Below, in pieces: positions 19,462-47,225 of a stretch of 55,970 nt of DNA. The translations under genes and the position numbers were made by a program. The notes under the pieces are model-generated. The model did no database searches. It was not told the DNA's origin and saw nothing but the letters and a program-made list of their open reading frames with translations. The stretch spans positions 1 to 55,970 of the forward strand of contig JAJYDL010000001.1 of assembly GCA_021777495.1 (NCBI GenBank), in the 5' to 3' direction. Source of the DNA: a bacterium (GTDB taxonomy: Bacteria; Patescibacteriota; Minisyncoccia; UBA6257; 2-01-FULL-56-20). Positions within the stretch are counted from its first letter, which is position 1, and each line of letters begins with the position of its first letter.

Positions 19462-19476
19462 CGCTATTCGTGTTCG

Positions 19477-20778: not shown

Positions 20779-20834
20779 ACGATTAGTATTCCCGCACGCC
20801 CCGCGTTCCGGTCGGAGCAATACGCGGAAGGGCG

Positions 20835-24711: not shown

Positions 24712-24753
24712 AACGCCTCTCAGTATACACGAGCATTTTCCGGACGACAAATC

Positions 24754-28127: not shown

Positions 28128-28178
28128 CGCTCCATCCTACTCCGTTCCGATCAATAAAAGCCGAAGAAGGCGTCCGCG

Positions 28179-29150
28179 TCAGAATACCCGCAGGAGAAGC
28201 TGTATGAGCACGAGACCGATGACGCCGAGGATGGCGACATAGGAGAACACGGATGCGTTCGGGTATCCGCTCTTGGGAACGGTCGTCGTGGGCGTGTACT
28301 CCTCGAGCCGTTCGTTCCCCGCGGCGTCGAACGCGCGCACCGCGATCGTATCGGTGAGCGATTGATCGGTGAGGAGATAGGGGCTGATCGCCCGCTTCCA
28401 ATCCCACTGGTCCTCCGGAAGCTTGAGATCGGAGGGCGGGATCTCGGCAATCTCGTAGTGATCGATGCCCGTCTGCTTGTCCACGGTCGAAAACGTGGCA
28501 AACCATTGATTATTGAAAAGCGAAGGGTCGCGATAGACGCCGATTGCGAAGGGCTCGGGCGGAACAGTATCGTCTTCGAGCGCCTTCTGCCAGGTATCCA
28601 CCGGCGCAAATTGTCCCTGGAGTATCTCCGCATATTTCGCGCCGGCGGTCGTAAGAGGCGCGATCGTTCCCTCGCCGTCGTTCAGCGTCGCCTGAGTGCC
28701 CGGAAGAAATGCGAGCAGTGCGCTCTCGGGAGCCGTCGAGGAGCCCGCGGCGGTCGATGTGGCGAAGCGGAAATAGATCGTCGCGAGCTTGTTGCTGAGC
28801 GAGGGATCTCCGGGGACGCGCCCGCAATATCCTCCGGGAAGCCCTCCCACGAACGAGATGATGCCGTACTGCGAATAGATCGTGGGGTTCTTGACCCACA
28901 TGGAGAATATGGAATCTCCGTCGCTTACGGCGACCGCCTGGAGGACGTCCGCGGGATATGCGATATCCACTTCGGCCGCATTGATGCATTGCGACGGGCC
29001 CGTATCGAGGCGGACGTCCACCGGGAACGTGACTCCCGGCGGATATTTGCCCGTTGCCGGATTGATATAGATCTGCGCCGCATGCGCAAAGAGAGGCATG
29101 ATGCCCGCATATACCATGGCTCCAAGAACGACCCCGACCCTCTTCTTCAT
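28179..29150 (-). CDS. cohesin-like domain protein, signal peptide plus C-terminal TM anchor
   Basis: IYINPATGKYPPGVTFPVDVRLDT...INAAEVDIAYPADVLQAVAVSDGDSIFSMW follows a cohesin-type pattern. C-terminal helix SVFSYVAILGVIGLVLIQLLL. Confidence 0.75.
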   Translation of the reverse strand: MKKRVGVVLGAMVYAGIMPLFAHAAQIYINPATGKYPPGVTFPVDVRLDTGPSQCINAAEVDIAYPADVLQAVAVSDGDSIFSMWVKNPTIYSQYGIISFVGGLPGGYCGRVPGDPSLSNKLATIYFRFATSTAAGSSTAPESALLAFLPGTQATLNDGEGTIAPLTTAGAKYAEILQGQFAPVDTWQKALEDDTVPPEPFAIGVYRDPSLFNNQWFATFSTVDKQTGIDHYEIAEIPPSDLKLPEDQWDWKRAISPYLLTDQSLTDTIAVRAFDAAGNERLEEYTPTTTVPKSGYPNASVFSYVAILGVIGLVLIQLLLRVF

Positions 29151-29178
29151 ACCTAAAAGTATATCACACGAGGCGGCA

Positions 29179-30336
29179 TTATCCCGTCCAGTAATACAGA
29201 AGAATGCTCAGGTCCGGGAGGTCCACTATGCCGTCGCCGTTCAGGTCCGCGGTGGGGTTGCTTGTCCCCCAGTAATAGAGGAGTATCGAGAAATCCGCAA
29301 GGTTCACCTTGCCGTCGCCGTTCAGGTCCGCAAGCAGCTTCTTGCTCGGCGTACCGCTGCCCACATAGAAGGGTACTGCCTGGCTTATCGTGCTCCGCAA
29401 TAACGCGCCGTTCTCCGTGGTGATGAAATCCGCATCCACCGTATGATAGGCGTCGTTCTGGAGCACCGAAGTGTCCACGGGCACCGCCCATCCTCCCATG
29501 GAATTCGTGGTTGTCGTCACTATAATGTTCCCGCCCGAATGCACGTGCACTTCGATCGTTGACGAAGGCACGGATTCTCCCGACACCGTCACCGTTCCCC
29601 CTTTTGCCACCTGGCGTTTGTCGATGGATATCGTCGGGGGCAGAAGTTCGCCGGAAATCGTGGTCGCGGCGTCCGCGGTGACGGTGAAGGTCGTCGTGAG
29701 CGCGATGGACTTGAGGCCCGTCGCATCCTGCGCCCAGATGCCGAAGGTATATACCCCGGGAGAGATGTTCGTCGTCGAGAAATAAAAATTCGCGTTGGAA
29801 TCCGCCTGTACGACCCCGATCGTCTGGCCGTCCTGGAGGATGTTCACGCTTGCGCCCGGATACGCCTGCCCCTGAATGATCACGGTCGTCGGATTCGGTG
29901 CGGTGTAGCTCCCCGGAGAATAGCCGAACGAAGGCGCCGGCGCGGGACCCGGTCCCGGCAGCGGTGCGAGCGACGTGATCTGGCATGTCGCGGAGCATCC
30001 CGATCCCGCCACCCCGTTCATCGCGCCCGCATCGCACTGCTCTCCGTACTGGGGCTGGAGGATCCCGTCGCCGCAGTACGGGGCCCATGCCCGGCACCCG
30101 GGCATGCACTGGCGGTTGGCCGATGATGTGGAATACTGCCCCGTGTTCGTTCCCGTATCGCACACCTCGGTGGGAGCCTGCACGATCCCGTCCCCGCATA
30201 CGCTGATCGTCACCGTGGTCGTCGCATAGCTTTGCGCCCGCACCGGCGCCGCCGGGGATGCAAACAGGAACAGTGCCGCCGCGGCTGCGGCGACGGAAAA
30301 GATGATTATGGTACGCAGGAATACCCGGCGGATCAT
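29179..30336 (-). CDS. secreted protein: Cys-rich repeats, Ig-like domains and a C-terminal dockerin
   Basis: CGDGIVQ..EVCD and CGDGILQ..EQCD repeats. Duplicated dockerin segment DLNGDGKVNLADFSILLYYWG ... DLNGDGIVDLPDLSILLYYW. Confidence 0.85.
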   Translation of the reverse strand: MIRRVFLRTIIIFSVAAAAAALFLFASPAAPVRAQSYATTTVTISVCGDGIVQAPTEVCDTGTNTGQYSTSSANRQCMPGCRAWAPYCGDGILQPQYGEQCDAGAMNGVAGSGCSATCQITSLAPLPGPGPAPAPSFGYSPGSYTAPNPTTVIIQGQAYPGASVNILQDGQTIGVVQADSNANFYFSTTNISPGVYTFGIWAQDATGLKSIALTTTFTVTADAATTISGELLPPTISIDKRQVAKGGTVTVSGESVPSSTIEVHVHSGGNIIVTTTTNSMGGWAVPVDTSVLQNDAYHTVDADFITTENGALLRSTISQAVPFYVGSGTPSKKLLADLNGDGKVNLADFSILLYYWGTSNPTADLNGDGIVDLPDLSILLYYWTG

Positions 30337-30345
30337 ATGCGTATA

Positions 30346-31350
30346 TTATGCTCTCGGCGCGCGCGGAGGGGGCGGCGTCGGAACGCCCTTCCTTCTTCCG
30401 CGCCGGCGGAACAACCCCCGGATGCCCACATACATCGCCCAAAGCATGAGCAGTATCCCCGCAAGGACCGCAAAGGTAATAAGCTTCTCCTGCCATGGCA
30501 ATACGAGGAAGTTGTAGGGGACATATCCCGGGATGCTTCCGGGTGGCAGCACGCTCAGATCGAGCGTACCCTGTCCGATGAGATCGCTGTCATCGCGTCC
30601 GTAGATCTGATAGAAAACCTTGTACGTACCCTGGGGCAGATAGGTGGGCATCTCCGCGGTCACGGTCTTCGTCTGGAACGGGTCGACGCTCGCAAGCCAG
30701 TTGGTATTCTGCTCCACCTCGAGCACCTTCTGGGTAAGGTAGTCGCTGTACGTGAACACCACTCTGTAAGGACTCCCTGAAATGTTCCCATCGTTCTCGA
30801 TATCCATATTAAAGAGAACCTTGCCCGGGAAATGCATCCAAAGCCATGTGAATCCCTGCTCCGCGTTCGTCATCGATACTCGCCGCACCTTGAAATCCAC
30901 ATTCTTCTGGTTTATCACGCGGAGGTTCACGTCGATCTGCGCGCCGATCGTAAGGCCGACGGTCCCCGCTGCGGGACCGTTCATGGGAGAGACGACTACC
31001 TGGATATTCCCCTGGTACTGTCCGAGCTTCGCATCGCTCGGCACATTCACGCTCACGATCATCGGCATCTCCTGCGTGCCGGACGGCATCGCGAACTGCG
31101 TGCCCTTGTCGATGGAAATCCAGCCGTCCGCCCCCGGAACATTCACCGTCACCTTTGCGGTGAGGTCCTGATCCGGCGTTCCGCGCACAAGGAGGATCTT
31201 CTGTTCGTAGTGCGAACCCGGCGCAAGCGCGTCATTCGTCACGTAGGGAGGAGTGATGCCGAATCCTTCGGCGTTCACGCGATGCACGCCGAATGAAAAG
31301 CCGGCGCACACAAGAAGCGCCGCCGCCGCTATAAAGTTCATCTTCCTCAT
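30346..31350 (-). CDS. CscA/DUF916-DUF3324-like surface protein with C-terminal TM anchor (paralog 1)
   Basis: Signal peptide. Shares motifs with 46075, 48490 and 49595 (G.Y.G.I; N[DT]G[ND][IV]; LPW just before the TM helix). Basic cytoplasmic tail. Confidence 0.8.
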   Translation of the reverse strand: MRKMNFIAAAALLVCAGFSFGVHRVNAEGFGITPPYVTNDALAPGSHYEQKILLVRGTPDQDLTAKVTVNVPGADGWISIDKGTQFAMPSGTQEMPMIVSVNVPSDAKLGQYQGNIQVVVSPMNGPAAGTVGLTIGAQIDVNLRVINQKNVDFKVRRVSMTNAEQGFTWLWMHFPGKVLFNMDIENDGNISGSPYRVVFTYSDYLTQKVLEVEQNTNWLASVDPFQTKTVTAEMPTYLPQGTYKVFYQIYGRDDSDLIGQGTLDLSVLPPGSIPGYVPYNFLVLPWQEKLITFAVLAGILLMLWAMYVGIRGLFRRRGRRKGVPTPPPPRAPRA

Positions 31351-31389
31351 TGGTCCGTGAAAAAAGGAACCCCGTAAAACGTTTCAATC

Positions 31390-31398
31390 ATTATACCA
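31390..31398 (-). promoter_or_regulatory. extended -10 promoter element (TGgTATAAT)
   Basis: The minus strand reads tgTGgTATAAT, about 40 nt upstream of ATG 31350. Confidence 0.45.
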
Positions 31399-31424
31399 CA
31401 GCCGCAACGGGACCGCGCCGGAAC

Positions 31425-33293
31425 CTACCAGTACTGCGCGGGGCTCTTCACGCCAACGAACGTGTTCTGTCCGGTGTACGCACCCGAAAGCTGGATGGTG
31501 CTCGGCACCGCGATACCCCAGAAGGTGGATCCCGTGCTCGGCGATGATGTTGCGATCGACTTGGGAATATGGATCGGCACAAGCGTGCCCGGATTCGTAA
31601 GGAGCGCGGCACCCGAACCGTAGGCGACGGACGACGTCGCGTACTGTATCTGCCCCACGGGAATGGTCGATGTGGTCGAAACGGCGCAGCTCGGATAGGT
31701 GGTACACATATTCGCACCGTACAGGGTTTCATTAAGACCGACGTTTCCCGTCGATGCAAGGATCGTGGACGTAGCAAGCGTCGGCGTGCTCGACCCCGGG
31801 CTCAATCCTCCGAAGTTGATGGCGGGCGTATCGAGCTGTGCCGCAAGGAAGCTTGCGACCTCGTTGCCGGTTGCGGCTTCCGTGAGAGGGCTCGATGAGC
31901 CGTTGTGGTTCGTCGCCTGCGCGCTCACGAGCCAGTTCTGGTTGTAATACTGCGTGTCGCTCGCGGTCGTGCCGTCCGTGGGATCCGCGACATACCACAG
32001 CGGGAAATAGCAGGTCCACGTTGCGCTGATGGAGCTCGAGCCGTTGCACGATCCCGTGTCCTGCGTGCAGGTGACGGGCCACGTGGACGACCCCACCGCA
32101 TTCGGATAGCAGTTATCGGGATTGTAATTCGGCCCCGTCTGGCACGATGCCTGGCCGATACCCGAACGATACACGTTGATGATGGCGGAAGTGATCTCCT
32201 GTCCCCCGGAAATCGTCTGACAACTATTGTCGTCCGAAACCGTGAACTTTACCGCAAACCCGTTCGTCTGTCCTCCCGGCACCGTAAGCGCGAGCGGATT
32301 CGTGGTTCCGTCGTTATTCAAAAGGCTGATGCTTGAAGAAGCGATCGTAGGCGCGACGTTGTTTATCGCGTACGTGGAGGTCGCCCCTTCCGCCCCGCCC
32401 GACGCGGGAAGCCCGTGCTGGTCCACGACATACCCATAGGAAGAATAGGTTCCGTCGGGACGCGGCAACGGGGTCGTGTATGAGCAGGTGGGATTGAGGG
32501 TTGTCGTCGCGGAAGTGCAGTACGTCCCCGCAGGACCGCAGGCCGAACCCGTAAAGTCGTTCGCCTTGCAGACGAAGAGCTGGATGGTATCGGTGGCCCC
32601 CGTGAATGTGTCGCTGTCCGATGCGACCGCCGTCCAGCTGATGTTCGTCCCGGGATTCACCGGACCGGTATTCGACAGGGAAGTGAACGCGGGGGGATGG
32701 TTGACCACGAAGGGCGACCCCGTCGTATAGGTCGCGTTGCACTTTGCTCCTCCAAAGTTGTTGTCGCAGATCCACGCATACCACGAATCGAACTGCGGAT
32801 CGCTGCTCGAGGCGGTATAGGTCGTGGTTGCGGTACCCGTACTCGGCGTGACGGCGGATACGCCCCACTGATTGACGGTGCCTCCGCCGCATGTGGGCGG
32901 CCCTCCCGCCGTACCGGGAGTCGGCGTGCTCGTGGACTTACAAAGGAGGAGGTAATAGCTGTCGTTATTGGGGTCGGTTGCCACGGCGTACCACGTCACC
33001 TTACTCCCCACGTTCGTCGGCGCGGTGGTGGTGGACACCGGATTCTCGTATGCGTTCGTCGTCCAGTTCGGCGGCGTGTTGAGCACCGTCACCGTCGTCG
33101 TTGCCGTGCTTTGTGCGAAGGTAAAGCGGGCATGATAGAGAGCGCCTGTCGCCCAGAAGTTCACGATGATGGCGGCGGCGGCCATAAAGATGCCCGAAAG
33201 GATCACGGCCACGGTCACGCGGCCACGCACATCCCGGACCTGTTCCTTCCACCATGCGATCCAACGTACGATCATGTAGGGATTTTTATTCAT
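31425..33293 (-). CDS. large secreted T/S-rich surface protein, C-terminal tail type II (..YTGQNTFVGVKSPAQYW)
   Basis: 622 aa with an N-terminal TM/signal anchor. The C-terminal region of about 130 aa is homologous to that of 37462-39519. Alternative start ATG 33275. Confidence 0.85.
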   Translation of the reverse strand: MNKNPYMIVRWIAWWKEQVRDVRGRVTVAVILSGIFMAAAAIIVNFWATGALYHARFTFAQSTATTTVTVLNTPPNWTTNAYENPVSTTTAPTNVGSKVTWYAVATDPNNDSYYLLLCKSTSTPTPGTAGGPPTCGGGTVNQWGVSAVTPSTGTATTTYTASSSDPQFDSWYAWICDNNFGGAKCNATYTTGSPFVVNHPPAFTSLSNTGPVNPGTNISWTAVASDSDTFTGATDTIQLFVCKANDFTGSACGPAGTYCTSATTTLNPTCSYTTPLPRPDGTYSSYGYVVDQHGLPASGGAEGATSTYAINNVAPTIASSSISLLNNDGTTNPLALTVPGGQTNGFAVKFTVSDDNSCQTISGGQEITSAIINVYRSGIGQASCQTGPNYNPDNCYPNAVGSSTWPVTCTQDTGSCNGSSSISATWTCYFPLWYVADPTDGTTASDTQYYNQNWLVSAQATNHNGSSSPLTEAATGNEVASFLAAQLDTPAINFGGLSPGSSTPTLATSTILASTGNVGLNETLYGANMCTTYPSCAVSTTSTIPVGQIQYATSSVAYGSGAALLTNPGTLVPIHIPKSIATSSPSTGSTFWGIAVPSTIQLSGAYTGQNTFVGVKSPAQYW

Positions 33294-33335
33294 TATATCC
33301 CATGTTGTCCACAGAAAAAGGCGGGGTTATCCACA
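33292..33335 (-). promoter_or_regulatory. promoter region with paired DnaA-box-like repeats
   Basis: TATAAT (minus strand, 33297-33292). TTGTCCACA (33305-33313) and TTATCCACA (33327-33335) lie 22 nt apart start to start. Confidence 0.5.
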
Positions 33336-33375
33336 CCCTATGCAAATCCTTCCTTTTCCGTCCGGGAATCCCCCT

Positions 33376-34578
33376 TTATTTGTATCTGATGGCCTCGAGC
33401 GGACTTATGGATGAAGCCCTGCGCGCCGGGAAAATCCCCGTAATGAAGCCTACGATCGCCGAGAAAAGCGTGATAAACCCGAGGAATGTGAGGGGAAAGG
33501 CGAAAAGCGCCACCGCAGCGCCGCCGAAGTGCGTTGCCAATAGATTCAATAGATAATTGATGATGAGACCTCCGGCGATGCCTATGGCCATCCCCGTCAT
33601 GCCCCCCAGGAACCCGACCACGACCGCCTCCGCGAGGAAAAGGAACTGGATATCGCGGGGCGAACCGCCGATCGTACGCATGACGCCGATCTCCCCCGTG
33701 CGCTCAAGGAGCGTCACCGTCATGGTATTCACCATGCCGATCGCCGACACGATGAGCGCGATGCCGCCGAACCCTGCAAGGACCCATTGGACGCCGGTGA
33801 AGATCTGATTCGCCTGATCCACCGTCTTCGAGAGCGCCGACACCACATACCCATCCTTCACGATGGCGGCCTGGACGCCGCCGAGATTGCCGCTCGCGTT
33901 CACGCGCACCTGGACCTTGTCGTATTGCGGGATCCCCACCTGCGAGGAAAGCGTGGCAAGGGGAATCATCGCATAGATGGAGGCGCTGTCGTTCGTCACC
34001 CCCGTCACGGTGAAGTTCCCGTTCAGGGGCACCTGCTCGCTCTGCCCCCCGCCCTGCGCCTGCGTCACGATCCGGAACGATACCGGCTTCCCGATGATCG
34101 CCTTCGGATCGCTCACGCCGAAAAGCTGCAGCGCGGCGCTCGAAAGGATGACGTCGTTCGCATCCGAAGGCTGGTCGCTGAACTGGCTTCCTGCCGCCAT
34201 GGAAATGCCCGCGTATTTGAAATACGACGCCTGCGCCCCCTCGAGGTCCGTGTTCGCCGAAAGGCCGTTGTAGGTGATGAGCGACTGGAAGGTCGCGAGC
34301 GGCGATACGTCCTGGACGTTCGGGATCGCCTTGAACTTCGCAAGCGCGTTGTCGTCGAGCGTCACGGCGCTCGTTGCCGGCGGCGTAACGGTGAGGCTGA
34401 GGAGCGTATCGCCGAACACGATCTTCTCGAGCAGGATGTTCTGAAGGCCGAAACCGAGACCTACGAGCATCACGACCGCGGCGGTACCCACGCCCATGCC
34501 GAGGATCGTAAGCCATGTCCTTGCGGGATTGGTCTTGAACATCCTCGTGGAAAGCTTCAATGAATCGGCGACTCTCAT
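33376..34578 (-). CDS. ABC transporter permease, MacB/FtsX-like
   Basis: The N-terminal TM helix is followed by an extracytoplasmic domain of about 230 aa and then a C-terminal 3-TM FtsX domain. Confidence 0.88.
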   Translation of the reverse strand: MRVADSLKLSTRMFKTNPARTWLTILGMGVGTAAVVMLVGLGFGLQNILLEKIVFGDTLLSLTVTPPATSAVTLDDNALAKFKAIPNVQDVSPLATFQSLITYNGLSANTDLEGAQASYFKYAGISMAAGSQFSDQPSDANDVILSSAALQLFGVSDPKAIIGKPVSFRIVTQAQGGGQSEQVPLNGNFTVTGVTNDSASIYAMIPLATLSSQVGIPQYDKVQVRVNASGNLGGVQAAIVKDGYVVSALSKTVDQANQIFTGVQWVLAGFGGIALIVSAIGMVNTMTVTLLERTGEIGVMRTIGGSPRDIQFLFLAEAVVVGFLGGMTGMAIGIAGGLIINYLLNLLATHFGGAAVALFAFPLTFLGFITLFSAIVGFITGIFPARRASSISPLEAIRYK

Positions 34579-34597
34579 GGTAATAGTATAGAACGGT

Positions 34598-35908
34598 TCA
34601 GAGATACATGCCCTGCCCGATGAGCTTCTCGAGATACCAGCTCACGTGCCGCGCGGTATCGGGATCGAGGCCCATGCCGTCGCCCTCAAAAGGAGACTTG
34701 AGGCGGCGACGGAAATCCTCGGACTGGATGAATCCCCGGATGCGGAACTTGAGGAGCTCATCCATGCGCGCAATGCGCTCCGGCGGGATGCGGAACCCGC
34801 ACTCCCGCATGAGATCCTCGCGCACCTCGGCGATGCGGTCCCCCTGGCGCAGCGAGGCCACTTTTGCGGTGAAGTTATCCCGGTATGCGCGGATGTCCCG
34901 CGCCTCTTTGAGCACGATATTCAGCTTTTCTTCGAACATTTCCGCACGATGACGATCGATCTCCGGACCTCCTTCGTCCACGGACCTCGTAAGCCTGTCC
35001 ACAAACCCTTCATCCGTGAGCTTTCCGTCGATGAACATCCCGACCGTCCGTTCCAGCTGTTCGATCTGGTCGAAACCGATGTCCTGGGTGAGGAAATTCA
35101 CGACGCTCTTCACCCGCAGCTCCTCCGGCGACGCATACGGATAGATGCGCGCAAGCTTCTCGATCTCGGAAAGGATCGACGTCCCGGGGTCCACCTGCTT
35201 GATCTGTTTCTTCTCCGGGTTCACCACCTCGCGCTCCACGCCGCCGTCTTTCATGTGATAGACGCGGTGCGCATAGGGCAGCAGCTTCGCGTCATGGGTG
35301 ACGAGGATGACCGTCTTCTGCTGCTTCATGTTGATCTCCTCGAGCATGCCCATCACCTGGTCCGCCGACACGCTGTCGAGGTTGCCGACCGGTTCGTCGG
35401 CGAAAAGGATCTCCGGGTCGTTGATGAGCGAGCGCGCAACGGCGACGCGCTGCTGCTGGCCTCCCGAAAGATCCGTCGAGCGCTTGTGCGCCTGCTGATC
35501 CACGCCGAACTGTTTGAGCAGCTTCATTGCCCGCGCATACCGCTCCGCGGGCGGCACGTTTGCGAAGATGAGCGGGAGCGCGACGTTGTCGATCACGCTG
35601 AGCGACGGAATGAGGTTGAACGACTGGAAGATGATGCCCACCGTCTCCCTTTGGAACCGCACCATATCCTTCACGCCGTACTTATAGGGATTCTCCCCCT
35701 TCACGAGGATCTCCCCGGACGACGGCGGAAGAATGCCGAGCAGGCTGTAGAGCAGCGTCGATTTCCCGCAGCCCGAAGGGCCGAACAGGATGATATATTC
35801 CTTGGGATAGATCTCCAGGGTCTCCCCGCGCAGGGCATTGTATTCGTTCGACTTGCCCTGATTGTAGATGACTTTGATGTTATTTACCTTGATGATCGGC
35901 TCGAGCAT
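34598..35908 (-). CDS. ABC transporter ATP-binding protein (MacB/LolD type) with a C-terminal extension of about 210 aa
   Basis: Walker A GPSGCGKST, signature LSGGQQQR, Walker B ILFADEP. A helical extension of unknown family follows residue 225. Confidence 0.9.
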   Translation of the reverse strand: MLEPIIKVNNIKVIYNQGKSNEYNALRGETLEIYPKEYIILFGPSGCGKSTLLYSLLGILPPSSGEILVKGENPYKYGVKDMVRFQRETVGIIFQSFNLIPSLSVIDNVALPLIFANVPPAERYARAMKLLKQFGVDQQAHKRSTDLSGGQQQRVAVARSLINDPEILFADEPVGNLDSVSADQVMGMLEEINMKQQKTVILVTHDAKLLPYAHRVYHMKDGGVEREVVNPEKKQIKQVDPGTSILSEIEKLARIYPYASPEELRVKSVVNFLTQDIGFDQIEQLERTVGMFIDGKLTDEGFVDRLTRSVDEGGPEIDRHRAEMFEEKLNIVLKEARDIRAYRDNFTAKVASLRQGDRIAEVREDLMRECGFRIPPERIARMDELLKFRIRGFIQSEDFRRRLKSPFEGDGMGLDPDTARHVSWYLEKLIGQGMYL

Positions 35909-35918
35909 GGTGGTTCTC

Positions 35919-37400: not shown

Positions 37401-37461
37401 GTTGTTATGATACCACACGCCGCGGCGGCGTTCCGCGCCGCACCCATCCCTCCTTCGCTCT

Positions 37462-39519
37462 TTACGGCCACGGCAACGGGAGCTTCACGCCGACAAACGA
37501 ATTCATTCCCGTATATGTGGTCGCCATCTGTCCCGCGGGGATCGCGATGCCCCAATAGAACGTGGAGCTTTCCACCGTGGTCGTGGATACGGGCTTCGGA
37601 AGATCGATCGCCACCGTCGATCCCGGGTTCGGGAGCAGCGCCGTCCCCGACGCATAGGATATCGCGGAGGTCGCGAAATGCTGCTGTCCCACGGGAATGC
37701 TGAACGAGCTGTTCACCATGTTTGTGCCATAAAGATCCACGTTCATCGCAACGTTCCCCATCGACTGGATCACCGCCGTAGGGCCGAGGCTTGCGGTACT
37801 CGAGCCCTGCGTCAGATTGCCGTAATTTATCGTCGAGGTCGTTTCGAACGCGAGAAGCGAAAGCAGCGGCACGCCCGTCGAAGAGGCCGTGCCCGTGGCG
37901 CCCGCGGAGTCCACGGCGAGCATCGAGGCCGACCAGGAATCCCCCGCCCATGGCGTCGATGCGTCCGTCGGCTGGGCGAAATACCAGACGTGGAAACTGC
38001 AGGTTACGTTGCAGGATGTTCCCGCACAGCCGCTGAACGAACAGTCGCTCGGCGCACCTTGATAGCAATCGTTCGGATCGGGTGTGCATGCCGGCCCGAG
38101 GCTCGTGCGATAGAGCGTGCTCGTCACCGTCTGGATGTCGGTAAACCCGTTACCGTCGCTCACCGTTGCCGTGGCCGTGATGAGCGTCGTCGTCCCCTCG
38201 ATAAGGGCGATGCTCTGCCCCCCATTCAGGCTGACGGGGCCTATCGTCGGAGGAACATTTCCGATGGTGACTTCCGGATATGCGGCATAGGACGCAAACG
38301 GCGTACCGTTTGATTCCACGGCCCGGAAGCAGAACGTGGATCCTCCGGGCGCGCTGTTGTCGATGAGCGCGAAGTCCCACTTCCCGTCCTCTCCCGGAAG
38401 GATCGCGCCCTGCGAGTTCGTGAAGGTGTTCGCCTCCACATAGGTCTGATTCACGATGGTGTTTGTTCCGTCGACGGGATCGGTCGACGTAGGTACGAGC
38501 GGATCCCCGTTCGCGGGGGTCGGGTTGTTATAGAACTCGATATACCCCGTCGAGGTCGCCACATCGGCGTACGCCCCCGTCGGTGCCGCGCATGTTCCCG
38601 TTCCCATGTCGGCCATCTGCAATTTAAATGAGCGATTTCCCGCGGCGAGCTGGTTCGTCGCCACATTGACGAGCATGCGGAGGCGGAAAGGCGCCGTAAG
38701 CGATGCGAGCACCGTCGACGCGTTCTGCAATGCGAGCGGAGGCCCCACGCTCGCGCTGTCCGTATTCGAAAACCATCGGAATGCGTTCTGGCTGAACGTG
38801 ATCTGCGCTTTGAAGCTCACGATCTGCCCTATCCATGCACCGGACGCCGCCGCGGTGCCGACGGTCGAATAGGTCCCCGTTGCGTTCACCACCCGGTCCG
38901 CGCCGCTGTAGGTTGCGCGCGAACCGTGACTGCCGTTCGCGTTCGAAAAATCGTTTTCTTTGGTAAAGGAGTTGCTCCACGAAGAAAATGTTGTTTGCGC
39001 AATGATCGTGGTGGCCGCGAAAAGCAGTTCGTCCGGCTGGACCGTCGTGATTGCCGCTCCGTTCGTCGCCGTACCCGTACCCGCTGTCGATGTCGCTTGA
39101 TCAAGGGGGTTTACTGCCGATAATCCGCTGTATTCATAAATATGGAGGCCCAACTGCAGCGAAGATGCCGTAGTCACGGTAACCGCGGTAGGCTCGCCGG
39201 TTCCCGCCACCTTATAAAATATCGCCTGGCTCGGAGTTCCTGCGACGTTGAGCGCCACCGACCATCCGGACGGCACATTGATCCCGGTATTTCCGCCTGC
39301 GCCAAGTACGGCAATGAGGAGGTCGCCCGCGGTAGGCGTCGTCCCGAATGTCGCGGTCACGGTGTTCGCGCCGCCTCCCGCGCTCGTATTGCTCGCCGTC
39401 TGGATGAGCGTCGTCGTGGCGCGCGCGAAGGGCCACAGTACGAACACGCGGCTCACCGCGAGCCATGCGAGGAGCAGGCCGGCAAGGACTATGCCGAAAG
39501 AATAGATGCGGCGCATCAT
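37462..39519 (-). CDS. large secreted surface protein, one adhesin-type module plus C-terminal tail type II (..YTGMNSFVGVKLPLPWP)
   Basis: 685 aa with a signal anchor. Module motifs are FRWFSNTDS, FRLRM, FKLQM, FCFRAV and YAAYPEV. The C-terminus is homologous to that of 31425-33293. Confidence 0.85.
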   Translation of the reverse strand: MMRRIYSFGIVLAGLLLAWLAVSRVFVLWPFARATTTLIQTASNTSAGGGANTVTATFGTTPTAGDLLIAVLGAGGNTGINVPSGWSVALNVAGTPSQAIFYKVAGTGEPTAVTVTTASSLQLGLHIYEYSGLSAVNPLDQATSTAGTGTATNGAAITTVQPDELLFAATTIIAQTTFSSWSNSFTKENDFSNANGSHGSRATYSGADRVVNATGTYSTVGTAAASGAWIGQIVSFKAQITFSQNAFRWFSNTDSASVGPPLALQNASTVLASLTAPFRLRMLVNVATNQLAAGNRSFKLQMADMGTGTCAAPTGAYADVATSTGYIEFYNNPTPANGDPLVPTSTDPVDGTNTIVNQTYVEANTFTNSQGAILPGEDGKWDFALIDNSAPGGSTFCFRAVESNGTPFASYAAYPEVTIGNVPPTIGPVSLNGGQSIALIEGTTTLITATATVSDGNGFTDIQTVTSTLYRTSLGPACTPDPNDCYQGAPSDCSFSGCAGTSCNVTCSFHVWYFAQPTDASTPWAGDSWSASMLAVDSAGATGTASSTGVPLLSLLAFETTSTINYGNLTQGSSTASLGPTAVIQSMGNVAMNVDLYGTNMVNSSFSIPVGQQHFATSAISYASGTALLPNPGSTVAIDLPKPVSTTTVESSTFYWGIAIPAGQMATTYTGMNSFVGVKLPLPWP

Positions 39520-39562
39520 GGTGTCATTTTACCACGCTTGCGCACGCGCCCGTCCCCTCTTC

Positions 39563-41491
39563 CTATTTCACCACAAGATTGAACTGGCAGAAATTGGGAA
39601 GGATTTTTCCGTCGGCTTGCCGCTCTTTATATATGACGATCACCCCGTAGGAACCCGGCACCGTCGAGGGTGCCACGGTAAGACCGATCGTATCGATCCC
39701 GGGAGGTCCTCCCGGAACGATGGTTCCGGTCACGCCCGCGGGCAACGATCCGAGGGCCGTTTCGTAAAGCGGCGCGGTTATGGGCGCCGGGGGAGGAGGA
39801 GGCGCCGGGGGAGGATACGCCCTCCCCGAAGAGGCCGCCGATGAGCTTGGCAGAACTTCCGGCGGCGCCTGCACCACCATGGAAAGGACATACGATGCGC
39901 TTCCGCCGGGATATGCCGCGTTCGAGAACGGGGTAACCGAGCACTTCTGCTGCGCCGAGGGATCGAACACGCTCTGAAGCGCGTCCGCGGGCGCCGACGA
40001 GGATACGGAGGCGGACGACGAGCTTTGCGCGAACACCGTGCTTGTCGCGGCAGTCTGGGCGGTGTTCGGATCTATCGTCCCATTCGGCGCATCGGCGTAA
40101 TCCACCTCGACCCCCAAAGCATCGAGATACACCTTCGGGGAATCCGTGGCATTCAGTCCGACGAGCGCCACCTGAAGATGTTGGAGTTCCTGCCATGAAT
40201 AGATCGGAATAGGATAGCGCGCCGTCTGCCAATTTCCCGCGTTCACATCCGCGACCGGCTGCCACGTGACGCCATCCGTCGAATACATGATGGCGAGGAA
40301 ATCTCCCGGAGCTCCCGGCGGGAGGGTGATATTCTGAAATGCCGAGGTGTTCATGGTGATCGGCGCGGGCACGGTCGTCGTCGAAGGAACTCCTTCCGTA
40401 AGCGAAGATGTGGCGACGGTGGTGGTTGCTCCGTTCGTGAATATTCCCGTTGCGGTCGCCGTCGTCGTTGCGGCGGGCATTAACGCAGGCGAACGCGATG
40501 ATGACGAAGCAATCTGCGCGGCAGGGACGGACGACGCATTCTCCGCAAACGCGATCGGGAAAATATTGAAAAGCCAGGAGGTTCCGGACGAAGATGCTGT
40601 TGCGGGGGCGGGGGCGGGAGTGGGAGTGGGCGTTGGCGCGGGGGCGCTTGTTGGAGTAGCGGTATTCGTGCCTGCGGAAGGAGCGGTCGAGACCGGAGCG
40701 GGAGCGGCGGTTTGGGACATATCGGTGCTTGCGGAAGCAGGAGCGGAAGTCGAGGAAGAAGATACCACGACCGGGGCGGGAGTCGGAGCGGACGCGGACG
40801 TCGCCGTCGTACCGCTCGTCGTGGATGCCTGGCGCGGCGACTCCGTCGACGTCGACGTCGACGACGTGGGAGCGCGCTCCATGATCGTTGCTTCCGTCGA
40901 GCTTGCGGCGAAGGAACTGCTCGTACCGGAACCCTCGGCCGTCCCCGTCGCCGCGGATGATGCCTGAGTGGAGGTCGCGGTGGAGGTCGCGATAGGAACG
41001 GCCGCCGCCGAACCTCCTCCCCCGACGGAAGGAACGGGTGCAACGGCCGCATACCAGGAAAGGACGAGCGTCGCGGACCGGAACTGCTTCGCTTCAAGAT
41101 CCGCGATGTTCGTCTGTCCCGAGAAATTGCCGCAGAACATCTGCGCACCGCCCGTCGAGAATACCGCGGAATTGAGGGGGGTGAATGCCGATGCGGGCGA
41201 ACCGGGCGGAACGCTCGGCGCGCCGAGCGCGTTCTGCACGTTGTCCCACGAGCCGAGACACGACGAAGGATAGAAGTCGGCGGTGCTTGCGAACCCTATC
41301 ATGAAAGAATACGCGAACCCGCCCGCCGCCAAAACCCCGCACATCGCAAGAAACCACGCCTTATTCCTTTTCACGAATGCGCGGATGCTCCGCGCGCTTA
41401 TCTCGAACTGGACGCGGTACGTCCGTTCGCGGAGCATCACCGTCCCGCCCCGGGAGCGTGCGCGTATATCCGTAATCTTTTTCCGCTTCAT
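39563..41491 (-). CDS. membrane-anchored mucin-like protein (S/T/A/P-rich low-complexity stalk of about 300 aa)
   Basis: N-terminal TM helix (AWFLAMCGVLAAGGFAYSFMIGF). Long run ATSTATSTQASSAATG...PTPTPTPAPAPATASSSG. ATGA overlap with the upstream gene. Confidence 0.8.
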   Translation of the reverse strand: MKRKKITDIRARSRGGTVMLRERTYRVQFEISARSIRAFVKRNKAWFLAMCGVLAAGGFAYSFMIGFASTADFYPSSCLGSWDNVQNALGAPSVPPGSPASAFTPLNSAVFSTGGAQMFCGNFSGQTNIADLEAKQFRSATLVLSWYAAVAPVPSVGGGGSAAAVPIATSTATSTQASSAATGTAEGSGTSSSFAASSTEATIMERAPTSSTSTSTESPRQASTTSGTTATSASAPTPAPVVVSSSSTSAPASASTDMSQTAAPAPVSTAPSAGTNTATPTSAPAPTPTPTPAPAPATASSSGTSWLFNIFPIAFAENASSVPAAQIASSSSRSPALMPAATTTATATGIFTNGATTTVATSSLTEGVPSTTTVPAPITMNTSAFQNITLPPGAPGDFLAIMYSTDGVTWQPVADVNAGNWQTARYPIPIYSWQELQHLQVALVGLNATDSPKVYLDALGVEVDYADAPNGTIDPNTAQTAATSTVFAQSSSSASVSSSAPADALQSVFDPSAQQKCSVTPFSNAAYPGGSASYVLSMVVQAPPEVLPSSSAASSGRAYPPPAPPPPPAPITAPLYETALGSLPAGVTGTIVPGGPPGIDTIGLTVAPSTVPGSYGVIVIYKERQADGKILPNFCQFNLVVK

Positions 41492-43317
41492 CGCTTCTCT
41501 TCCTCCCCCTCGTTCAGCGCGCGATCGACGTCGTCGATCTCCTTCGCGATGGTCGATTCGGAGATCGCAAGCGCGTTCCTCATTGCATCGAGCACGTTTT
41601 CCGGCTCGAGTTTTATCTCCCCCTGCGCCGCCGCGGCTCCCCCCTCCATATGATTGATCTGATCGTCCACCTCCTCGCGCAGCGCCTCGAACACCGCCTT
41701 CGTCTTCTGGCGCACATCTTCGTTCTCCCGCCTCGCAAGCGAGACGTGGATGTCGTTTATCTTCTTCTTATAGAAGCCGTACGTCACAAGCCCGCCGATG
41801 AGCGAAAGGAGCAGGACGATGATGATCCATCCGAACCGGTCGAGGAACGGCGCCGCAAGGATGTCCATCGGCGCCGCCGCGGTCGTGCTTGCGAACGCGC
41901 CCTGCGTCGTGACCATCGATACGACGAGCGTGTATTTCCCTCCGGGAAGGCCGCCCTCCAGCGCATAGAGCCAGTGCCCCGTCGCGTCCGCCACCATCTT
42001 CCCCTCGGACACCGTCTTTCCGGTCGAATCATCGATATCAAGCGTCACGTTCGCGCCGCTGTCCGCGACGCCTTCGATCACGATGGGAGATTGCTCGACC
42101 GCCGCCGCCGGGAAGTTCGTGATCTCCGGGCTTCCGATGCCCGATATCTGGAACTGGCCGTCGGCCTCCGTACTGTTGCCCGCCTTGTCGACCGCGAAGA
42201 TCGCGACCGTGTGCTTGCCCGGCAGGAGCGGCGGGGCGGTATAGACCCCGCTCTGCAGATCGGACAGCGCGATCGTCGTCGATGCGCCTCCGTCGAACAC
42301 CGATTCGTAATGGTCCACGCCCGAAACCGTATCCGTCGCGTTGAACGCGATCGTCGTCCTCCCGGAGATCCCGGCGCCCGGCGTGATCGTAAGCGTGAAC
42401 GGCAGCGGGGGCGTGAGGTCGATCTGCACCGGCATGGTCATGGGGTCGCTCCAATCGCCGAGCGCATCCTCGAAGCGCACGTGGAAATACCATACGCCCT
42501 CCCCGATGTTTGAATATTGCTTGCTCGAAATGAGCCCTTCCGAAGTCCTTTTCGGATATGTATTGGGATTCTTGTCGAATGCCGTGCTCACTCCCGCAAT
42601 GTCGGGCGTCAGCTTCCATGAAAATGAAGGGTTCGGGTTGCTGTACCACTTCGTGGGATCGGGATGCGTCGGCGAGGCGATCGTCACCGAGGGCGTGAAC
42701 GAAGAAGGCGTGCTCGCGGGCTGGGATGCCTGCACCGACGATCCGCCGCCTCCCTGATTCGCCGAAGAAGCGGCCTGGTTCGCGGACGAAGGCGCCGGCG
42801 GCGCGGATGCCGTGAGGGTGAACGTGGCACCCGTCGTCCCCCCGAGAGCGCTCGTCCCCTGGCCATCCGCCGCAAGCGCGTCCGCGGATGCGAACTGGAG
42901 CGCCGCGCTCCCCGTCTTGAGGACTTTGAACGTGACGTCGAACACATCGCCGGCGTCCCCGGTGTAGGCGCTGTTGCTCCCCCCGCTGAAGTTCACCGTG
43001 CCGTCCGTGTTCGAGAACGAAGGGTCGCTCACCCAGAGATTGAATACCGAATTCCCCTTCGAGACGCTTTCCGCGGCGAGCAGCGTGGGATCGAACGTGA
43101 TCTTGCCGTCGGCGGCATTCACCCCCACGCCCCCTCCGCTCGCAAGCATGACGCTCACGGTGAACGTCTGTCCGACGGCATACGAACCGCTCGCCGGCGA
43201 GATGGATAACGACGCTCCGCCCGCGGCATTCGCCTGCGGCGGCGGAACGAGGAACGCCGCCGCAAGGAACGCGGCGGCGCATATGCTACTTGCCAGCCTG
43301 ATCCCTGGGTGTTTCAT
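41488..43317 (-). CDS. cohesin-like domain plus Ig-like domains, C-terminal TM helix and a cytoplasmic coiled-coil tail
   Basis: Signal peptide MKHPGIRLASSICAAAFLAAAFLVPPPQANA. Cohesin-type region SISPASGSYAVGQTFTVSVML...VNAADGKITFDPTLLAAESV. TM helix WIIIVLLLSLIGGLVTYGFY. Confidence 0.8.
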   Translation of the reverse strand: MKHPGIRLASSICAAAFLAAAFLVPPPQANAAGGASLSISPASGSYAVGQTFTVSVMLASGGGVGVNAADGKITFDPTLLAAESVSKGNSVFNLWVSDPSFSNTDGTVNFSGGSNSAYTGDAGDVFDVTFKVLKTGSAALQFASADALAADGQGTSALGGTTGATFTLTASAPPAPSSANQAASSANQGGGGSSVQASQPASTPSSFTPSVTIASPTHPDPTKWYSNPNPSFSWKLTPDIAGVSTAFDKNPNTYPKRTSEGLISSKQYSNIGEGVWYFHVRFEDALGDWSDPMTMPVQIDLTPPLPFTLTITPGAGISGRTTIAFNATDTVSGVDHYESVFDGGASTTIALSDLQSGVYTAPPLLPGKHTVAIFAVDKAGNSTEADGQFQISGIGSPEITNFPAAAVEQSPIVIEGVADSGANVTLDIDDSTGKTVSEGKMVADATGHWLYALEGGLPGGKYTLVVSMVTTQGAFASTTAAAPMDILAAPFLDRFGWIIIVLLLSLIGGLVTYGFYKKKINDIHVSLARRENEDVRQKTKAVFEALREEVDDQINHMEGGAAAAQGEIKLEPENVLDAMRNALAISESTIAKEIDDVDRALNEGEEEKR

Positions 43318-43888
43318 CCGAAATTTCTTTAACCGAAAGCTTCTTTCCCTCTCCCGGACGTTTCGCGGGCAATACGATGCGGAGCACGCCCCGTTCAAGG
43401 GATGCGTCCGCCTCTCCGGCGTCGAACGGCGCGGGGAGATATACTTTCCGATACCACCTCTTCCACTTCGTCTCCTGTTTCACGTACCTTCCTTTTTCGT
43501 CCCGGTCGCCGTCCTTCGCTTCGGAAAGCGGAGGCGGCGCAGGGCGTTTCTGTTCCGCTTGGATCGTAAGCGTGTTCTCCTCCTCGCTCATCACGATCTC
43601 AAGACCGTCCCTTGCGACACCGGGCAGCTGCGCCACAATGACCATCCGCGCATCGGATTGAAAGAGGTCGATATCGAGAGGCTCCATCCCGTCGGGCGGG
43701 ACGTTGTCCGCCGGGTCCACCGCGATGGACACCGGAGGGGTTCCGGGGCGCTGCGATTGATCGACGCGCTCGCCGGTCGCCTTGAACGACGCCGTCCTCG
43801 AGGTCGCGGATGGCGCCGGCGCGGCGGGAACCGCATCGGGATTCACTTCGTTCAATTTGCTTTCGAGCTTCTGGTAGAACGAGAGCAT
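43286..43888 (-). CDS. Hsp20/alpha-crystallin family protein with a Pro/Ala-rich N-terminal extension
   Basis: ACD pattern DLFQSDARMVIVAQLPGVARDGLEIVMSEEENTLTIQAE ... YRKVYLPAPFDAGEADASLERGVLRIVLPA. Confidence 0.85.
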   Translation of the reverse strand: MLSFYQKLESKLNEVNPDAVPAAPAPSATSRTASFKATGERVDQSQRPGTPPVSIAVDPADNVPPDGMEPLDIDLFQSDARMVIVAQLPGVARDGLEIVMSEEENTLTIQAEQKRPAPPPLSEAKDGDRDEKGRYVKQETKWKRWYRKVYLPAPFDAGEADASLERGVLRIVLPAKRPGEGKKLSVKEISDETPRDQAGK

Positions 43889-43925
43889 ATTATATCTAAG
43901 TATAGCACACCCTCCCGCCGCTTTT

Positions 43926-45620
43926 TCATCCCGTCCAGTTATACAGCATGATACTGAGGTCGGGGAGATCGATGACGCCGTCGCCGTTCAGGTCCCCCGG
44001 GGGCCATGCCTCCCCCCAGTGGAAGAGAAGAATGGAAAAGTCCACGAGATTCACTTTGCCGTCGCCGTTCAGGTCCCCCCTCCCTCTCGGTTTGGGGGCG
44101 GTGCCCACGCCAAGATAGGACACGCTCGAAAACGGACTCTCCGTATATGCGGGAAGGGACGATCTCGCTTTGATCTGATAGGTGTCGGTCGGGAATCCCG
44201 CGGTCGCAAGGCCGTAGGACCATGCCCCCGCCGCATCCGCGGTCGTGGTCGCCGTCACGGGAGCCTGCGCGCCGCTTTGGCTCGTCACCACGATCTCCAC
44301 CGTGGAGGATGGCTCGGCGACGCCCGATATCGTTGCGGTGCCGCCGATATTCACCGTACTTGTGGTAAAAGAGATCCCCGGCGGGAGCAGGATATTCGTG
44401 ATCCGGTTCGTCGTCCCGGAAATGAGCGTGATCGTTGCCGTATATGAGGCGATCGCGGCGCCGCCCGCGCCGTTCTCGACGAGCGTGAACGAATAGGTTC
44501 CCTCCGGCAACGGCGGAATGGTGACCGAAAAATTTCCCATACTGTCCGCGATCGTGGAAGCGCTCGGCAGCGAAACGCCGTCCTCAAGCACCGAGATGTT
44601 CACGTTCGGAAGCGCGACGCCCGAAATGGAAAGGGCCGGCTCCGAGGGGCCTGCGGGATACGGCGCACCACCTCCTCCCCCGCCGCCACCTCCGCCGCCT
44701 CCGGAATAGGATTGACCCGGCGTTCCGCCGCCCAGCCCGGTGCCCGTCGGATCTCCGGCGGCGAAAGAAATGACGTAATCGCTCGCATCCACGTTCCCCG
44801 TGAAGTCCTCGCAGCGCACATAGAACGTGTAGGTGGTCCCTTTGGTGATGCCCGTGATCGTCGTGTATTGAAATGTCCCCGTGTAATCGCTCGTGAATGT
44901 TCCCGTCATCGCGCCATAACTCACCCCGGAGGATGTCGCATATCGGCAGGTGGAATACGTATTGGTATCGAACGAAACGACCACGCCGAGCACGTTCGAA
45001 GGGATCGTTCCCGTCGGCAGGGCATTCGAAAGGACGGGCGGCGTGTTGCTGTATTGGTTCACGTCAACGCCGACCGCGGGGAGGATCGCCACCATCGCCG
45101 CACCGTAATCGATCGCGGCGCCTGCCGCCGTGTCCGTGTTGAGGAATATCCGGTAGGATGCCGTCGACGACGGATTGGTTATCTCATACCCCCCCGCCAT
45201 CCCGAGAACCACCTTCACGTACGCCCCCGCGGGGATCGCATTCCCCGACGGCATCGTAAGCATGATCGGCCCCGTTCCCGGCACGATGGACGCGCCCACA
45301 TTCGATGCGTTCGCGGAAGGCCCCACCGTCCACGGCACGAATCCCCCGGTCGGCGATGATGTGGAGACCGCAAATGAAATATCCGTATAGTTAAAGGAGG
45401 GATTGAGCGAGAACGCATCGTTTTCGAACGCAACAATTGCGGATCCCGATGCGGGAATGCCGCCGGGCACCCCGAACACAATCGTGTGGGTCGTCGGCCA
45501 TGAAGGACGCGAATCCCCGATCGTATCGCTCACGGGGGACATGACCGCGGCGCGGACAAACGAAGGAAAGGCGAACGCGCAGATCCATGCCGCCGCCGAA
45601 AACACCAGAAATCGTTTCAC
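43926..45620 (-). CDS. secreted Ig-like repeat protein with poly-Gly linker and C-terminal dockerin
   Basis: GTG start and signal peptide KRFLVFSAAAWICAFAFPSFVRA. G11 run. Dockerin DLNGDGKVNLVDFSILLFHWG...DLNGDGVIDLPDLSIMLYNW. Confidence 0.85.
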   Translation of the reverse strand: MKRFLVFSAAAWICAFAFPSFVRAAVMSPVSDTIGDSRPSWPTTHTIVFGVPGGIPASGSAIVAFENDAFSLNPSFNYTDISFAVSTSSPTGGFVPWTVGPSANASNVGASIVPGTGPIMLTMPSGNAIPAGAYVKVVLGMAGGYEITNPSSTASYRIFLNTDTAAGAAIDYGAAMVAILPAVGVDVNQYSNTPPVLSNALPTGTIPSNVLGVVVSFDTNTYSTCRYATSSGVSYGAMTGTFTSDYTGTFQYTTITGITKGTTYTFYVRCEDFTGNVDASDYVISFAAGDPTGTGLGGGTPGQSYSGGGGGGGGGGGGAPYPAGPSEPALSISGVALPNVNISVLEDGVSLPSASTIADSMGNFSVTIPPLPEGTYSFTLVENGAGGAAIASYTATITLISGTTNRITNILLPPGISFTTSTVNIGGTATISGVAEPSSTVEIVVTSQSGAQAPVTATTTADAAGAWSYGLATAGFPTDTYQIKARSSLPAYTESPFSSVSYLGVGTAPKPRGRGDLNGDGKVNLVDFSILLFHWGEAWPPGDLNGDGVIDLPDLSIMLYNWTG

Positions 45621-45632
45621 CTTATTATGGTA

Positions 45633-46061
45633 TCACGCCGCGGTCGGCGTTTCCTTCCCCTGCTCAGGGCCTCCCCTCCATTCCCCGCGCTCGCGGCGCG
45701 CGCCAAGATGGAAACTGAGCCCCGCGAAAAACGCGAGGACCCCTATCACAACCATGAAATACCACGGTATCGCCGCGGGCGATGCGGATCCTCCCGTCGT
45801 CGTCGCGGATGCAAGCGCGGCCCTCTGCGCCGCAAGGTCGGCGGCCTCCATATCGAGCTGGGTCTTCTCCTGGCTCAACTGCGCATTCAAAGTATTGTAG
45901 GGATTCGGCGCGACGCCCACGACCACGCCCACCTGCGCGAGCATGCTCTTCGCCGGAGCAAATCCTTCCGGCATGCGCGCGATCATAAATATGCTTCCGG
46001 CGACGACCGTTGCGGCCGCCGCCATGAGCATCGTTCCCATCCTTCCTTTTGGCATGTTCAT
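45633..46061 (-). CDS. small two-TM membrane protein with a central coiled-coil segment
   Basis: 142 aa. TM helices MLMAAAATVVAGSIFMIA and WYFMVVIGVLAFFAGLSF. Confidence 0.65.
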   Translation of the reverse strand: MNMPKGRMGTMLMAAAATVVAGSIFMIARMPEGFAPAKSMLAQVGVVVGVAPNPYNTLNAQLSQEKTQLDMEAADLAAQRAALASATTTGGSASPAAIPWYFMVVIGVLAFFAGLSFHLGARRERGEWRGGPEQGKETPTAA

Positions 46062-46074
46062 GCCGGGAAAACCG

Positions 46075-47187: not shown

Positions 47188-47225
47188 CGTATCATGCCCC
47201 GACGCGCCCTTTCAAGCCGGATGGC

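Follow-up and report, generated by a model that had tools for sequence, protein, structure and literature searches.

Two secreted proteins ending in a dockerin (DocA and DocB) and two membrane-anchored proteins carrying a cohesin are encoded in the window, a 55,970-nucleotide (nt) stretch of DNA from a Candidatus Paceibacterota bacterium belonging to the Candidate Phyla Radiation (CPR), which covers the source contig JAJYDL010000001.1 (assembly GCA_021777495.1) from end to end. With a probability of about 0.7, we interpret them as a non-enzymatic cohesin–dockerin system displaying proteins on the monoderm CPR cell surface. The genes for a dockerin protein, a small cohesin protein and a large cohesin protein form a conserved unit across Patescibacteria. 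All four open reading frames (ORFs) named in a preliminary description of the window are present where it had placed them, on the minus strand (Table 1).

In the literature on cohesins and/or dockerins in CPR, Patescibacteria and Parcubacteria no description of this module was found. Apparently new here are the conserved enzyme-free module, its membrane-helix anchors, the signs of an adaptor hierarchy and the location within a cluster with a MacB-type ATP-binding cassette (ABC) transporter. The interest of the module lies in its being conserved, membrane-anchored and enzyme-free in the CPR, not in the mere lack of a cellulosome.

Dockerin domains of DocA and DocB

Both proteins end in two duplicated segments, in each of which a 12-residue EF-hand-like Ca loop (D or N at positions 1, 3, 5, 9 and 12) precedes a helix. 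In either domain both loops are intact (DxNxDGxVxxxD) and have the full set of Ca ligands (DLNGDGKVNLAD / DLNGDGIVDLPD and DLNGDGKVNLVD / DLNGDGVIDLPD), and the motif that the preliminary description quoted for the duplicated segments was correct. The dockerin covers amino acids (aa) 336–385 of DocA (nt 29182–29331) and 514–564 of DocB (nt 43929–44081). The scores in the Pfam family Dockerin_1 (PF00404) were 38.6 bits for DocA and 29.5 bits for DocB, both over the threshold of 22.9 bits. A regular-expression search of the six frames of the window detected exactly four Ca-loop segments (29212–29247, 29293–29328, 43959–43994 and 44040–44075), so that the 56 kb include two C-terminal dockerins and no others.

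The remaining Pfam matches were DUF4215 (30.4 bits) and Big_6 (29.0 bits) in DocA and Big_13 (30.5 bits) in DocB, and the NCBIfam matches of DocA were myxo_disulf_rpt (38.6 bits) and dockerin_GC (29.5 bits, cutoff 29). DocA and DocB both begin with a signal-peptide-like segment of the Sec type, the N-terminus of DocA including a hydrophobic segment, and they share 37.5% identity across the two immunoglobulin (Ig)-like domains and the dockerin. The N-terminal beta domain of DocB (aa ~25–180) is common to the neighbouring 377-aa protein (47226–48359).

The AlphaFold2 model of DocB (mean predicted local distance difference test score, pLDDT, 81) consists of all-beta beads, with helices at residues 525–533 and 552–560 starting where each Ca loop ends. 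A Foldseek search with the model listed only multi-Ig surface proteins, such as S-layer proteins and adhesins, with the S-layer protein 7ptp as the top match. As the structural match scores were low, this result describes a 'string of Ig-like beads' and little more.

In a set of 60 dockerins, picked by a motif that itself fixes positions 1 and 5, the Ca-ligand positions 1, 3, 5 and 12 were conserved at 90–100%, and nearly all of the proteins ended in W-T-G. With a profile constructed from these 60, altogether 105 dockerin ORFs were found, in 82 of which the dockerin ends exactly at the protein C-terminus. Also both dockerins of the window are of the W-T-G type and share its invariant core (L10, D12, F13, S14, I15, L17 and W20).

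Cohesin domains and membrane anchors

The preliminary description had assigned a cohesin-like domain to both of the membrane-anchored proteins. For the large protein the Pfam model Cohesin (PF00963, threshold 24.1 bits) supported the assignment with 46.8 bits, Big_13 being matched with 45.8 bits. The small protein scored 22.7 bits, slightly short of the Pfam cut-off; its assignment is supported by four other lines of evidence. Its N-terminal region is 33% identical to the large cohesin domain over 152 aa (BLASTP E 1e-15). Against a profile made from the large-protein family it reached 75.5 bits, its Ig-like domain adding 24.5 bits. The AlphaFold2 model, which was based on 30 homologues (pLDDT 88.7), includes a nine-stranded beta-sandwich of the jelly-roll type at aa 25–175, as in the cohesin fold, followed by a second beta domain and a helix at aa 299–322.

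When this model was compared with the Protein Data Bank by Foldseek, all 50 best matches listed were cohesins, with E-values down to 5.7e-11. The best match was 2w1n, the cohesin and FN3 domains of Clostridium perfringens GH84C (E 5.7e-11), and the matches included OlpC (4dh2), OlpA (3ul4) and the Archaeoglobus fulgidus cohesin 2xdh. Template modelling (TM) scores to single cohesin modules were 0.7–0.78. On the profile, BLASTP and fold evidence, the 323-aa protein is a cohesin protein. The profile of the small-cohesin family was matched by 2,202 clusters at 50% identity (E ≤ 1e-30). Some single proteins of 735–901 aa (L046:9935-12598(+); P0301–P0303) match it in several stretches and appear to be a small and a large cohesin protein fused into one.

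Both cohesin proteins combine a signal-like segment at the N-terminus with a C-terminal hydrophobic helix, as in type-I membrane proteins, which bears out the membrane anchoring proposed earlier. The cohesin is the distal, far N-terminal domain, and the stalk below it consists of one Ig-like domain in the small protein and of a linker and three Ig-like domains in the large one. Homologues of the large protein are ~600 aa at full length, and some of them are named 'cohesin domain-containing protein' by NCBI; one database source gives the name 'FtsB' to a homologue. The tail following the helix of the large protein (aa ~509–609) is charged, and the alignment shows phylum-wide conservation (F-x-A-L-R-E-E ... 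K-E-I-x-D-I-E-K). This tail should be cytoplasmic, and it is possible that it has a cytoplasmic partner.

Conservation of the gene order

A pattern-limited scan detected the small cohesin in 232 species-representative genomes, from which 80 loci were fetched and analysed. The loci were scored with our own profiles for the dockerin and both cohesin families, and the small cohesin gene was found in 79 of the 80. In 56 of the 69 evaluable loci the small cohesin gene was immediately preceded, on the same strand, by a gene ending in a dockerin (median gap ~30 nt), and in a further ten loci a dockerin gene was present within 10 kb. The large cohesin gene followed directly after the small one in 60 of 79 loci. 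Over the 1.5-kb stretch preceding the small cohesin gene the density of dockerin ORFs was 0.56 per kb, compared with 0.032 per kb elsewhere in the loci, a difference of ~17-fold.

The order of the trio was kept also where the proteins are only 30–45% identical to those of the window, e.g. in Liptonbacteria and unclassified Patescibacteria. As the arrangement holds across such diverged loci, the ancestral layout is dockerin protein, small cohesin and large cohesin. In the window the small cohesin gene starts 28 nt past the stop of the DocA gene, confirming that a cohesin gene lies directly downstream of a dockerin gene. The large cohesin gene of the window lineage is elsewhere in the cluster, behind the DocB and Hsp20 genes, and the related locus L001 has the same layout.

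Clustering of the neighbouring ORFs placed the trio as the closing part of a conserved eight-gene cluster: an fn3/Pur_ac_phosph_N protein (~497 aa), a long ABC ATPase (~443 aa), a MacB/FtsX permease (~402 aa), an N-anchored protein of ~599 aa, a protein of ~335 aa, the dockerin protein, the small cohesin and the large cohesin. The families of the cluster recurred in 30–54 of the 80 loci, each at a constant offset on the upstream side of the small cohesin. From 37418 down to 28179 the window matches this order exactly through the small cohesin, and the same gene order is present in the Liptonbacteria locus L005; the cluster was noted as well among the loci L007–L086.

Cargo of the dockerins and adaptor proteins

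As the preliminary description had stated, no glycoside hydrolase (GH) is present among the 39 window ORFs scanned with Pfam (E ≤ 0.01 for the surface cluster and E ≤ 1e-4 for the upstream housekeeping genes; a few smaller ORFs, e.g. 27098–27574, were outside the scan). Several large surface proteins of the window had no Pfam match at all. Among 103 dockerin ORFs from the related loci, Dockerin_1 was matched in 89 (E ≤ 1e-3), Big_6 in 55, DUF4215 in 45 and Big_13 in 26; the remaining families were EF-hand models, CarboxypepD_reg, Cohesin, a few Ig-like families, fn3 and repeat families. None of the 103 dockerin proteins, which come from ~1.2 Mb of related loci, had a catalytic Pfam domain. The passengers were thus non-enzymatic, as had been proposed: Ig-like and Cys-rich modules in DocA and DocB, and no catalytic domain in the related proteins. 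Their role is most likely in surface architecture or host attachment, not in catalysis.

Adaptors of ~250 aa, consisting of a cohesin and a C-terminal dockerin, were located beside the module in 25 loci. Two of them were examined, and both exceeded the Pfam Dockerin threshold. The adaptor dockerins are clearly divergent from the DocA-like type and do not have the W-T-G end. Because of this difference, the adaptors suggest two dockerin specificities and a hierarchy, by analogy with the adaptor scaffoldins of cellulosomes. The window itself includes no adaptor.

Comparison with known systems

The simplest cellulosomal surface anchors, OlpA and OlpC of Clostridium thermocellum (3ul4 and 4dh2), carry a single type-I-like cohesin on an envelope-anchored protein and hold one dockerin protein at the surface. 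By analogy, the module may work in the same way. OlpA and OlpC use SLH domains as anchors and have enzymes as cargo, whereas the present module has a C-terminal membrane helix beneath an Ig-like stalk and a non-enzymatic cargo. The A. fulgidus cohesin (2xdh) and C. perfringens GH84C (2w1n) are likewise cases of cohesin or dockerin use outside plant cell-wall degradation, and 2w1n has the same two-domain layout as the 323-aa protein, a cohesin followed by an FN3-like domain. These are isolated proteins or toxin and hydrolase complexes, however, while here a phylum-wide operon encodes membrane-anchored cohesins with only Ig-like and Cys-rich cargo.

Both interaction modules are shared with cellulosomes and amylosomes, and the adaptors of the related lineages resemble the type I / type II hierarchy of those systems. 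Unlike in them, no dockerin-bearing carbohydrate-active enzyme was found in the window or among the 103 dockerin proteins, and no multi-cohesin scaffoldin, carbohydrate-binding module (CBM), SLH anchor or sortase (LPXTG) anchor was detected. The use of cohesin and dockerin outside cellulosomes is already established, e.g. in the A. fulgidus and C. perfringens structures and in amylosomes (PMC4611034). The NCBIfam model NF041540, 'GC-type dockerin domain-anchored protein', describes a similar C-terminal dockerin-like anchor, and DocA reaches its cutoff (29.5 vs 29 bits). DocB remains below it (17.7 bits), and the model is silent on a cohesin partner.

In the cultivated Southlakia epibionticum (Saccharibacteria) the dockerin-domain envelope protein SEML1_0315 was identified by transposon sequencing as essential and is needed for growth on the host (PMC10633639). 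It is, like DocA and DocB, a Patescibacterial surface protein with Ig-like domains and a dockerin. It differs in its length of 927 aa, and no cohesin partner is discussed for it (PMC10633639); beside its gene there are one for a tRNA and one for a hydrolase, but none for a cohesin. The present module leads to a testable idea for this protein, namely that proteins of this kind are held at the surface by cohesins. The module would bear on how Patescibacteria build their surface and attach to hosts; these bacteria account for much of bacterial diversity and live mainly fixed to other cells. If the interpretation is right, cohesin and dockerin are used phylum-wide for structural or adhesive display with membrane-helix anchors, perhaps with an enzyme-free adaptor hierarchy. 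The small, conserved and easily expressed domain pair would also provide an experimental handle for binding assays, surface pull-downs or tags, and surface labelling or blocking.

Proposed mode of action and alternative explanations

In the proposed mechanism the exported dockerin would be folded by calcium and would then plug into a cohesin, which would keep DocA and DocB at defined distances from the membrane by non-covalent binding. Display would occur at two heights fixed by the lengths of the cohesin stalks, and owing to its long stalk the large cohesin would probably reach through the cell wall. Since the halves of the dockerins are near-duplicates (16/21 and 13/21 residues identical), a dual binding mode is plausible. 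Gene adjacency suggests that DocA pairs with the small and DocB with the large cohesin, and cross-binding between the dockerins and cohesins is likely or at least plausible. The orthologue groups of DocA and DocB differ consistently only at positions 11, 18 and 19, too few for assigning either protein to a particular cohesin by its dockerin sequence. The 'pairs' of the preliminary description are therefore an assumption, both dockerins being of one type.

Besides this uniformity of the dockerins, several observations weigh against a display system built on cohesin–dockerin binding. The dockerins are unusually short, ~50 residues with a linker of 6–7 residues between the halves, and many of the dockerin-like modules that occur outside cellulosomes are not known to bind a cohesin. 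The small cohesin protein remained just under the Pfam threshold and had no sequence match to any solved structure, and the best such match of the large cohesin, to a scaffoldin cohesin, had an E-value of 0.057. The most conserved cohesin positions are in loops (GGxPGGYCG and LNDGxGT) and not clearly on the classical flat dockerin-binding face. The likeness of DocB to S-layer proteins and adhesins rests on generic tandem Ig folds (TM 0.1–0.2). Furthermore, the fairly close relatives L008 and L013 have a small cohesin without an adjacent dockerin gene. The slot of DocA is taken in L013 by an 866-aa protein (L013:7386-9986(+)) with four Big_7, three fn3 and two Big_13 domains and a PG_binding_1 end; this protein is not homologous to DocA, which rules out an anchor swap on the same cargo.

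Part of this evidence could also be explained by dockerin ends that are Ca-stabilised modules binding other things, such as host-cell or cell-wall glycans, with the cohesin-like domains as mere Ig-like sandwiches and the genes as neighbours merely because they encode surface proteins. Glycan targeting was proposed by Wang et al. for the essential Southlakia dockerin protein, whose gene is not beside a cohesin gene, and both the location of the conserved cohesin positions and the loci L013 and L008 are in line with this explanation. Against it stand the strict adjacency and order kept over deep divergence, and adaptors combining a cohesin with a second dockerin make sense mainly as links in cohesin–dockerin chains. 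As both domain types also pass family and fold tests, we regard binding to something other than cohesin as quite unlikely. A true cellulosome- or amylosome-like display, in which the cohesins would also or mainly carry dockerin-bearing GHs or further enzymes from parts of the genome outside the window, appears very improbable. In its favour, the window is only 56 kb, the nearest structural relatives of the cohesin are cellulosomal, and two GH130 genes of the Liptonbacteria locus L005 are located just downstream of the small cohesin gene. There is, however, no Dockerin_1 match on record for the two GH130 products. The dockerin ORFs are concentrated at the module, each cohesin protein has one cohesin, and neither a CBM nor a multi-cohesin scaffoldin was seen; the 103 dockerin proteins without a catalytic domain point in the same direction.

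The surroundings of the trio bring in one more explanation, in which cohesin and dockerin form a subunit interface of an envelope machine driven by the MacB-type ABC transporter, with mechanotransmission like that of FtsEX or LolCDE. The eight-gene order, which recurs in the 30–54 of 80 loci, in L005 and in the window, would fit such a machine, as would the conserved cytoplasmic tail of the large cohesin and the locus L003, with an amidase gene and FtsEX genes next after the large cohesin. We nevertheless consider it unlikely: nothing found here points to physical coupling, the large cohesin and DocB of the window lineage were retained when they moved away from the ABC genes, and the trio of L006 has no ABC genes nearby. 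Cohesin–dockerin binding would moreover still be required, so that the machine would extend the surface display system and not replace it. The display system itself could also be part of something larger, an enzyme-free hierarchical 'adhesosome' or S-layer anchor. In this tentative and somewhat doubtful extension, the trio, the adaptors and the MacB-type ABC cluster would be core and possibly essential, and would link extracellular Ig-like proteins via the membrane-spanning cohesin stalk to the conserved cytoplasmic tail, underlying the envelope or host attachment of epibiotic ultra-small Patescibacteria.

Neighbouring genes and other features of the window

Table 1. Main proteins, neighbouring genes and adaptor examples. 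Positions refer to the window, except for the adaptors, which are given as locus:positions(strand).
Feature	Positions	Strand	Composition or basis
DocA, 385 aa, secreted	29179..30336	-	signal peptide, 2 Cys-rich repeats (DUF4215 / TIGR02232), Pro-rich linker, 2 Ig-like (Big_6), C-terminal dockerin
DocB, 564 aa, secreted	43926..45620	-	signal peptide, N-terminal beta domain, FN3-like, Gly-rich linker, 2 Ig-like, C-terminal dockerin
Small cohesin protein, 323 aa	28179..29150	-	signal peptide, cohesin aa ~25-176 (nt 28623-29078), Ig/FN3-like aa ~195-290, membrane helix aa ~297-322
Large cohesin protein, 609 aa	41488..43317	-	signal peptide, cohesin aa ~35-175 (nt 42793-43215), Ser/Ala/Gly linker, 3 Ig-like incl. 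Big_13, membrane helix aa ~486-508, ~100-aa tail
334-aa protein	30346-31350	-	signal peptide and C-terminal membrane helix; cluster position
N-anchored 622-aa protein	31425-33293	-	cluster position
MacB/FtsX permease	33376-34578	-	Pfam
Long ABC ATPase	34598-35908	-	Pfam
fn3/Pur_ac_phosph_N protein	35919-37418	-	Pfam
642-aa N-anchored protein, Ser/Thr/Ala/Pro-rich	39563..41491	-	membrane segment aa 47-65; no Pfam match
Hsp20-family gene	43286..43888	-	Pfam HSP20 40.1 bits; no signal peptide
Adaptor examples	L017:11697-12404(-), L032:3522-4373(-), L051:13433-14182(+)		cohesin + dockerin; 22 other loci besides

Homologues of the window proteins were labelled Candidatus Paceibacterota, Parcubacteria or Patescibacteria. 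The credible genes of the window are all on the minus strand, with a GC content of ~0.75–0.8 at third codon positions in a sequence of 60% GC. The long plus-strand ORFs, including 17623-21243(+) of 1206 aa and 23098-26244(+) of 1048 aa, were rejected as shadow ORFs antisense to real minus-strand genes, as is typical of GC-rich DNA. A scan of 27300–47250 for promoters and terminators gave the same counts as shuffled sequence.

The Hsp20 gene intervenes between the DocB and large cohesin genes and is probably outside the surface module. The corresponding slot is likewise occupied in the related locus L001, and in most other lineages it holds the small cohesin gene. The start of the gene for the 642-aa protein overlaps the stop of the large cohesin gene by 4 nt, because of which the two are probably co-translated; in L001 a 584-aa gene is next after the large cohesin gene. 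Directly downstream of the small cohesin gene is the gene of a lamin-tail-domain (LTD) protein (27468–28127) with a membrane segment at aa 163–181 and no N-terminal signal peptide.

The ABC ATPase of the cluster, ~440 aa in length, includes a C-terminal extension of ~200 aa. Paralogues of the cluster families abound in the surface cluster, which spans 27468 to the end of the contig. Four paralogues (30346–31350, 46075–47187, 48490–49602 and 49595–50590), which have a signal peptide and, at the C-terminus, a membrane helix, belong to a family with weak Pfam matches (fn3_5, WxLIP_PGBD and CopC). In 54 of the 80 loci this family is next to the dockerin gene on its upstream side. Surface protein families without Pfam matches are represented by 31425–33293, 37462–39519 and 47226–48359, with related ORFs in L007–L081. 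Their conserved C-terminal motifs, 'YWGIxIP...GxYTGxNTFxGV...W' and '...DDYTxxLxYxATPTF', resemble the end of Firmicutes WxL domains, while the Pfam WxL model matched none of the 36 proteins. Of 44 proteins in the ~335-aa family, four matched WxLIP_PGBD, each of them weakly (at most 25 vs 27.3 bits). A WxL or Csc-type cell-surface complex formed by the neighbouring genes thus had no Pfam support and was kept as a weak lead.

The rest of the window consists of housekeeping genes for a ClpB-like ATPase, Pol X, LexA, TruD, a Mur ligase, RuvA, CTP synthase and a histidine kinase. At the other end of the window, a 1381-aa surface protein (50604–54749) and the next ORF (54746–55963) have in common a stretch of 340 residues with 64% identity, in addition to further repeats, and the latter ORF probably runs past the contig end.

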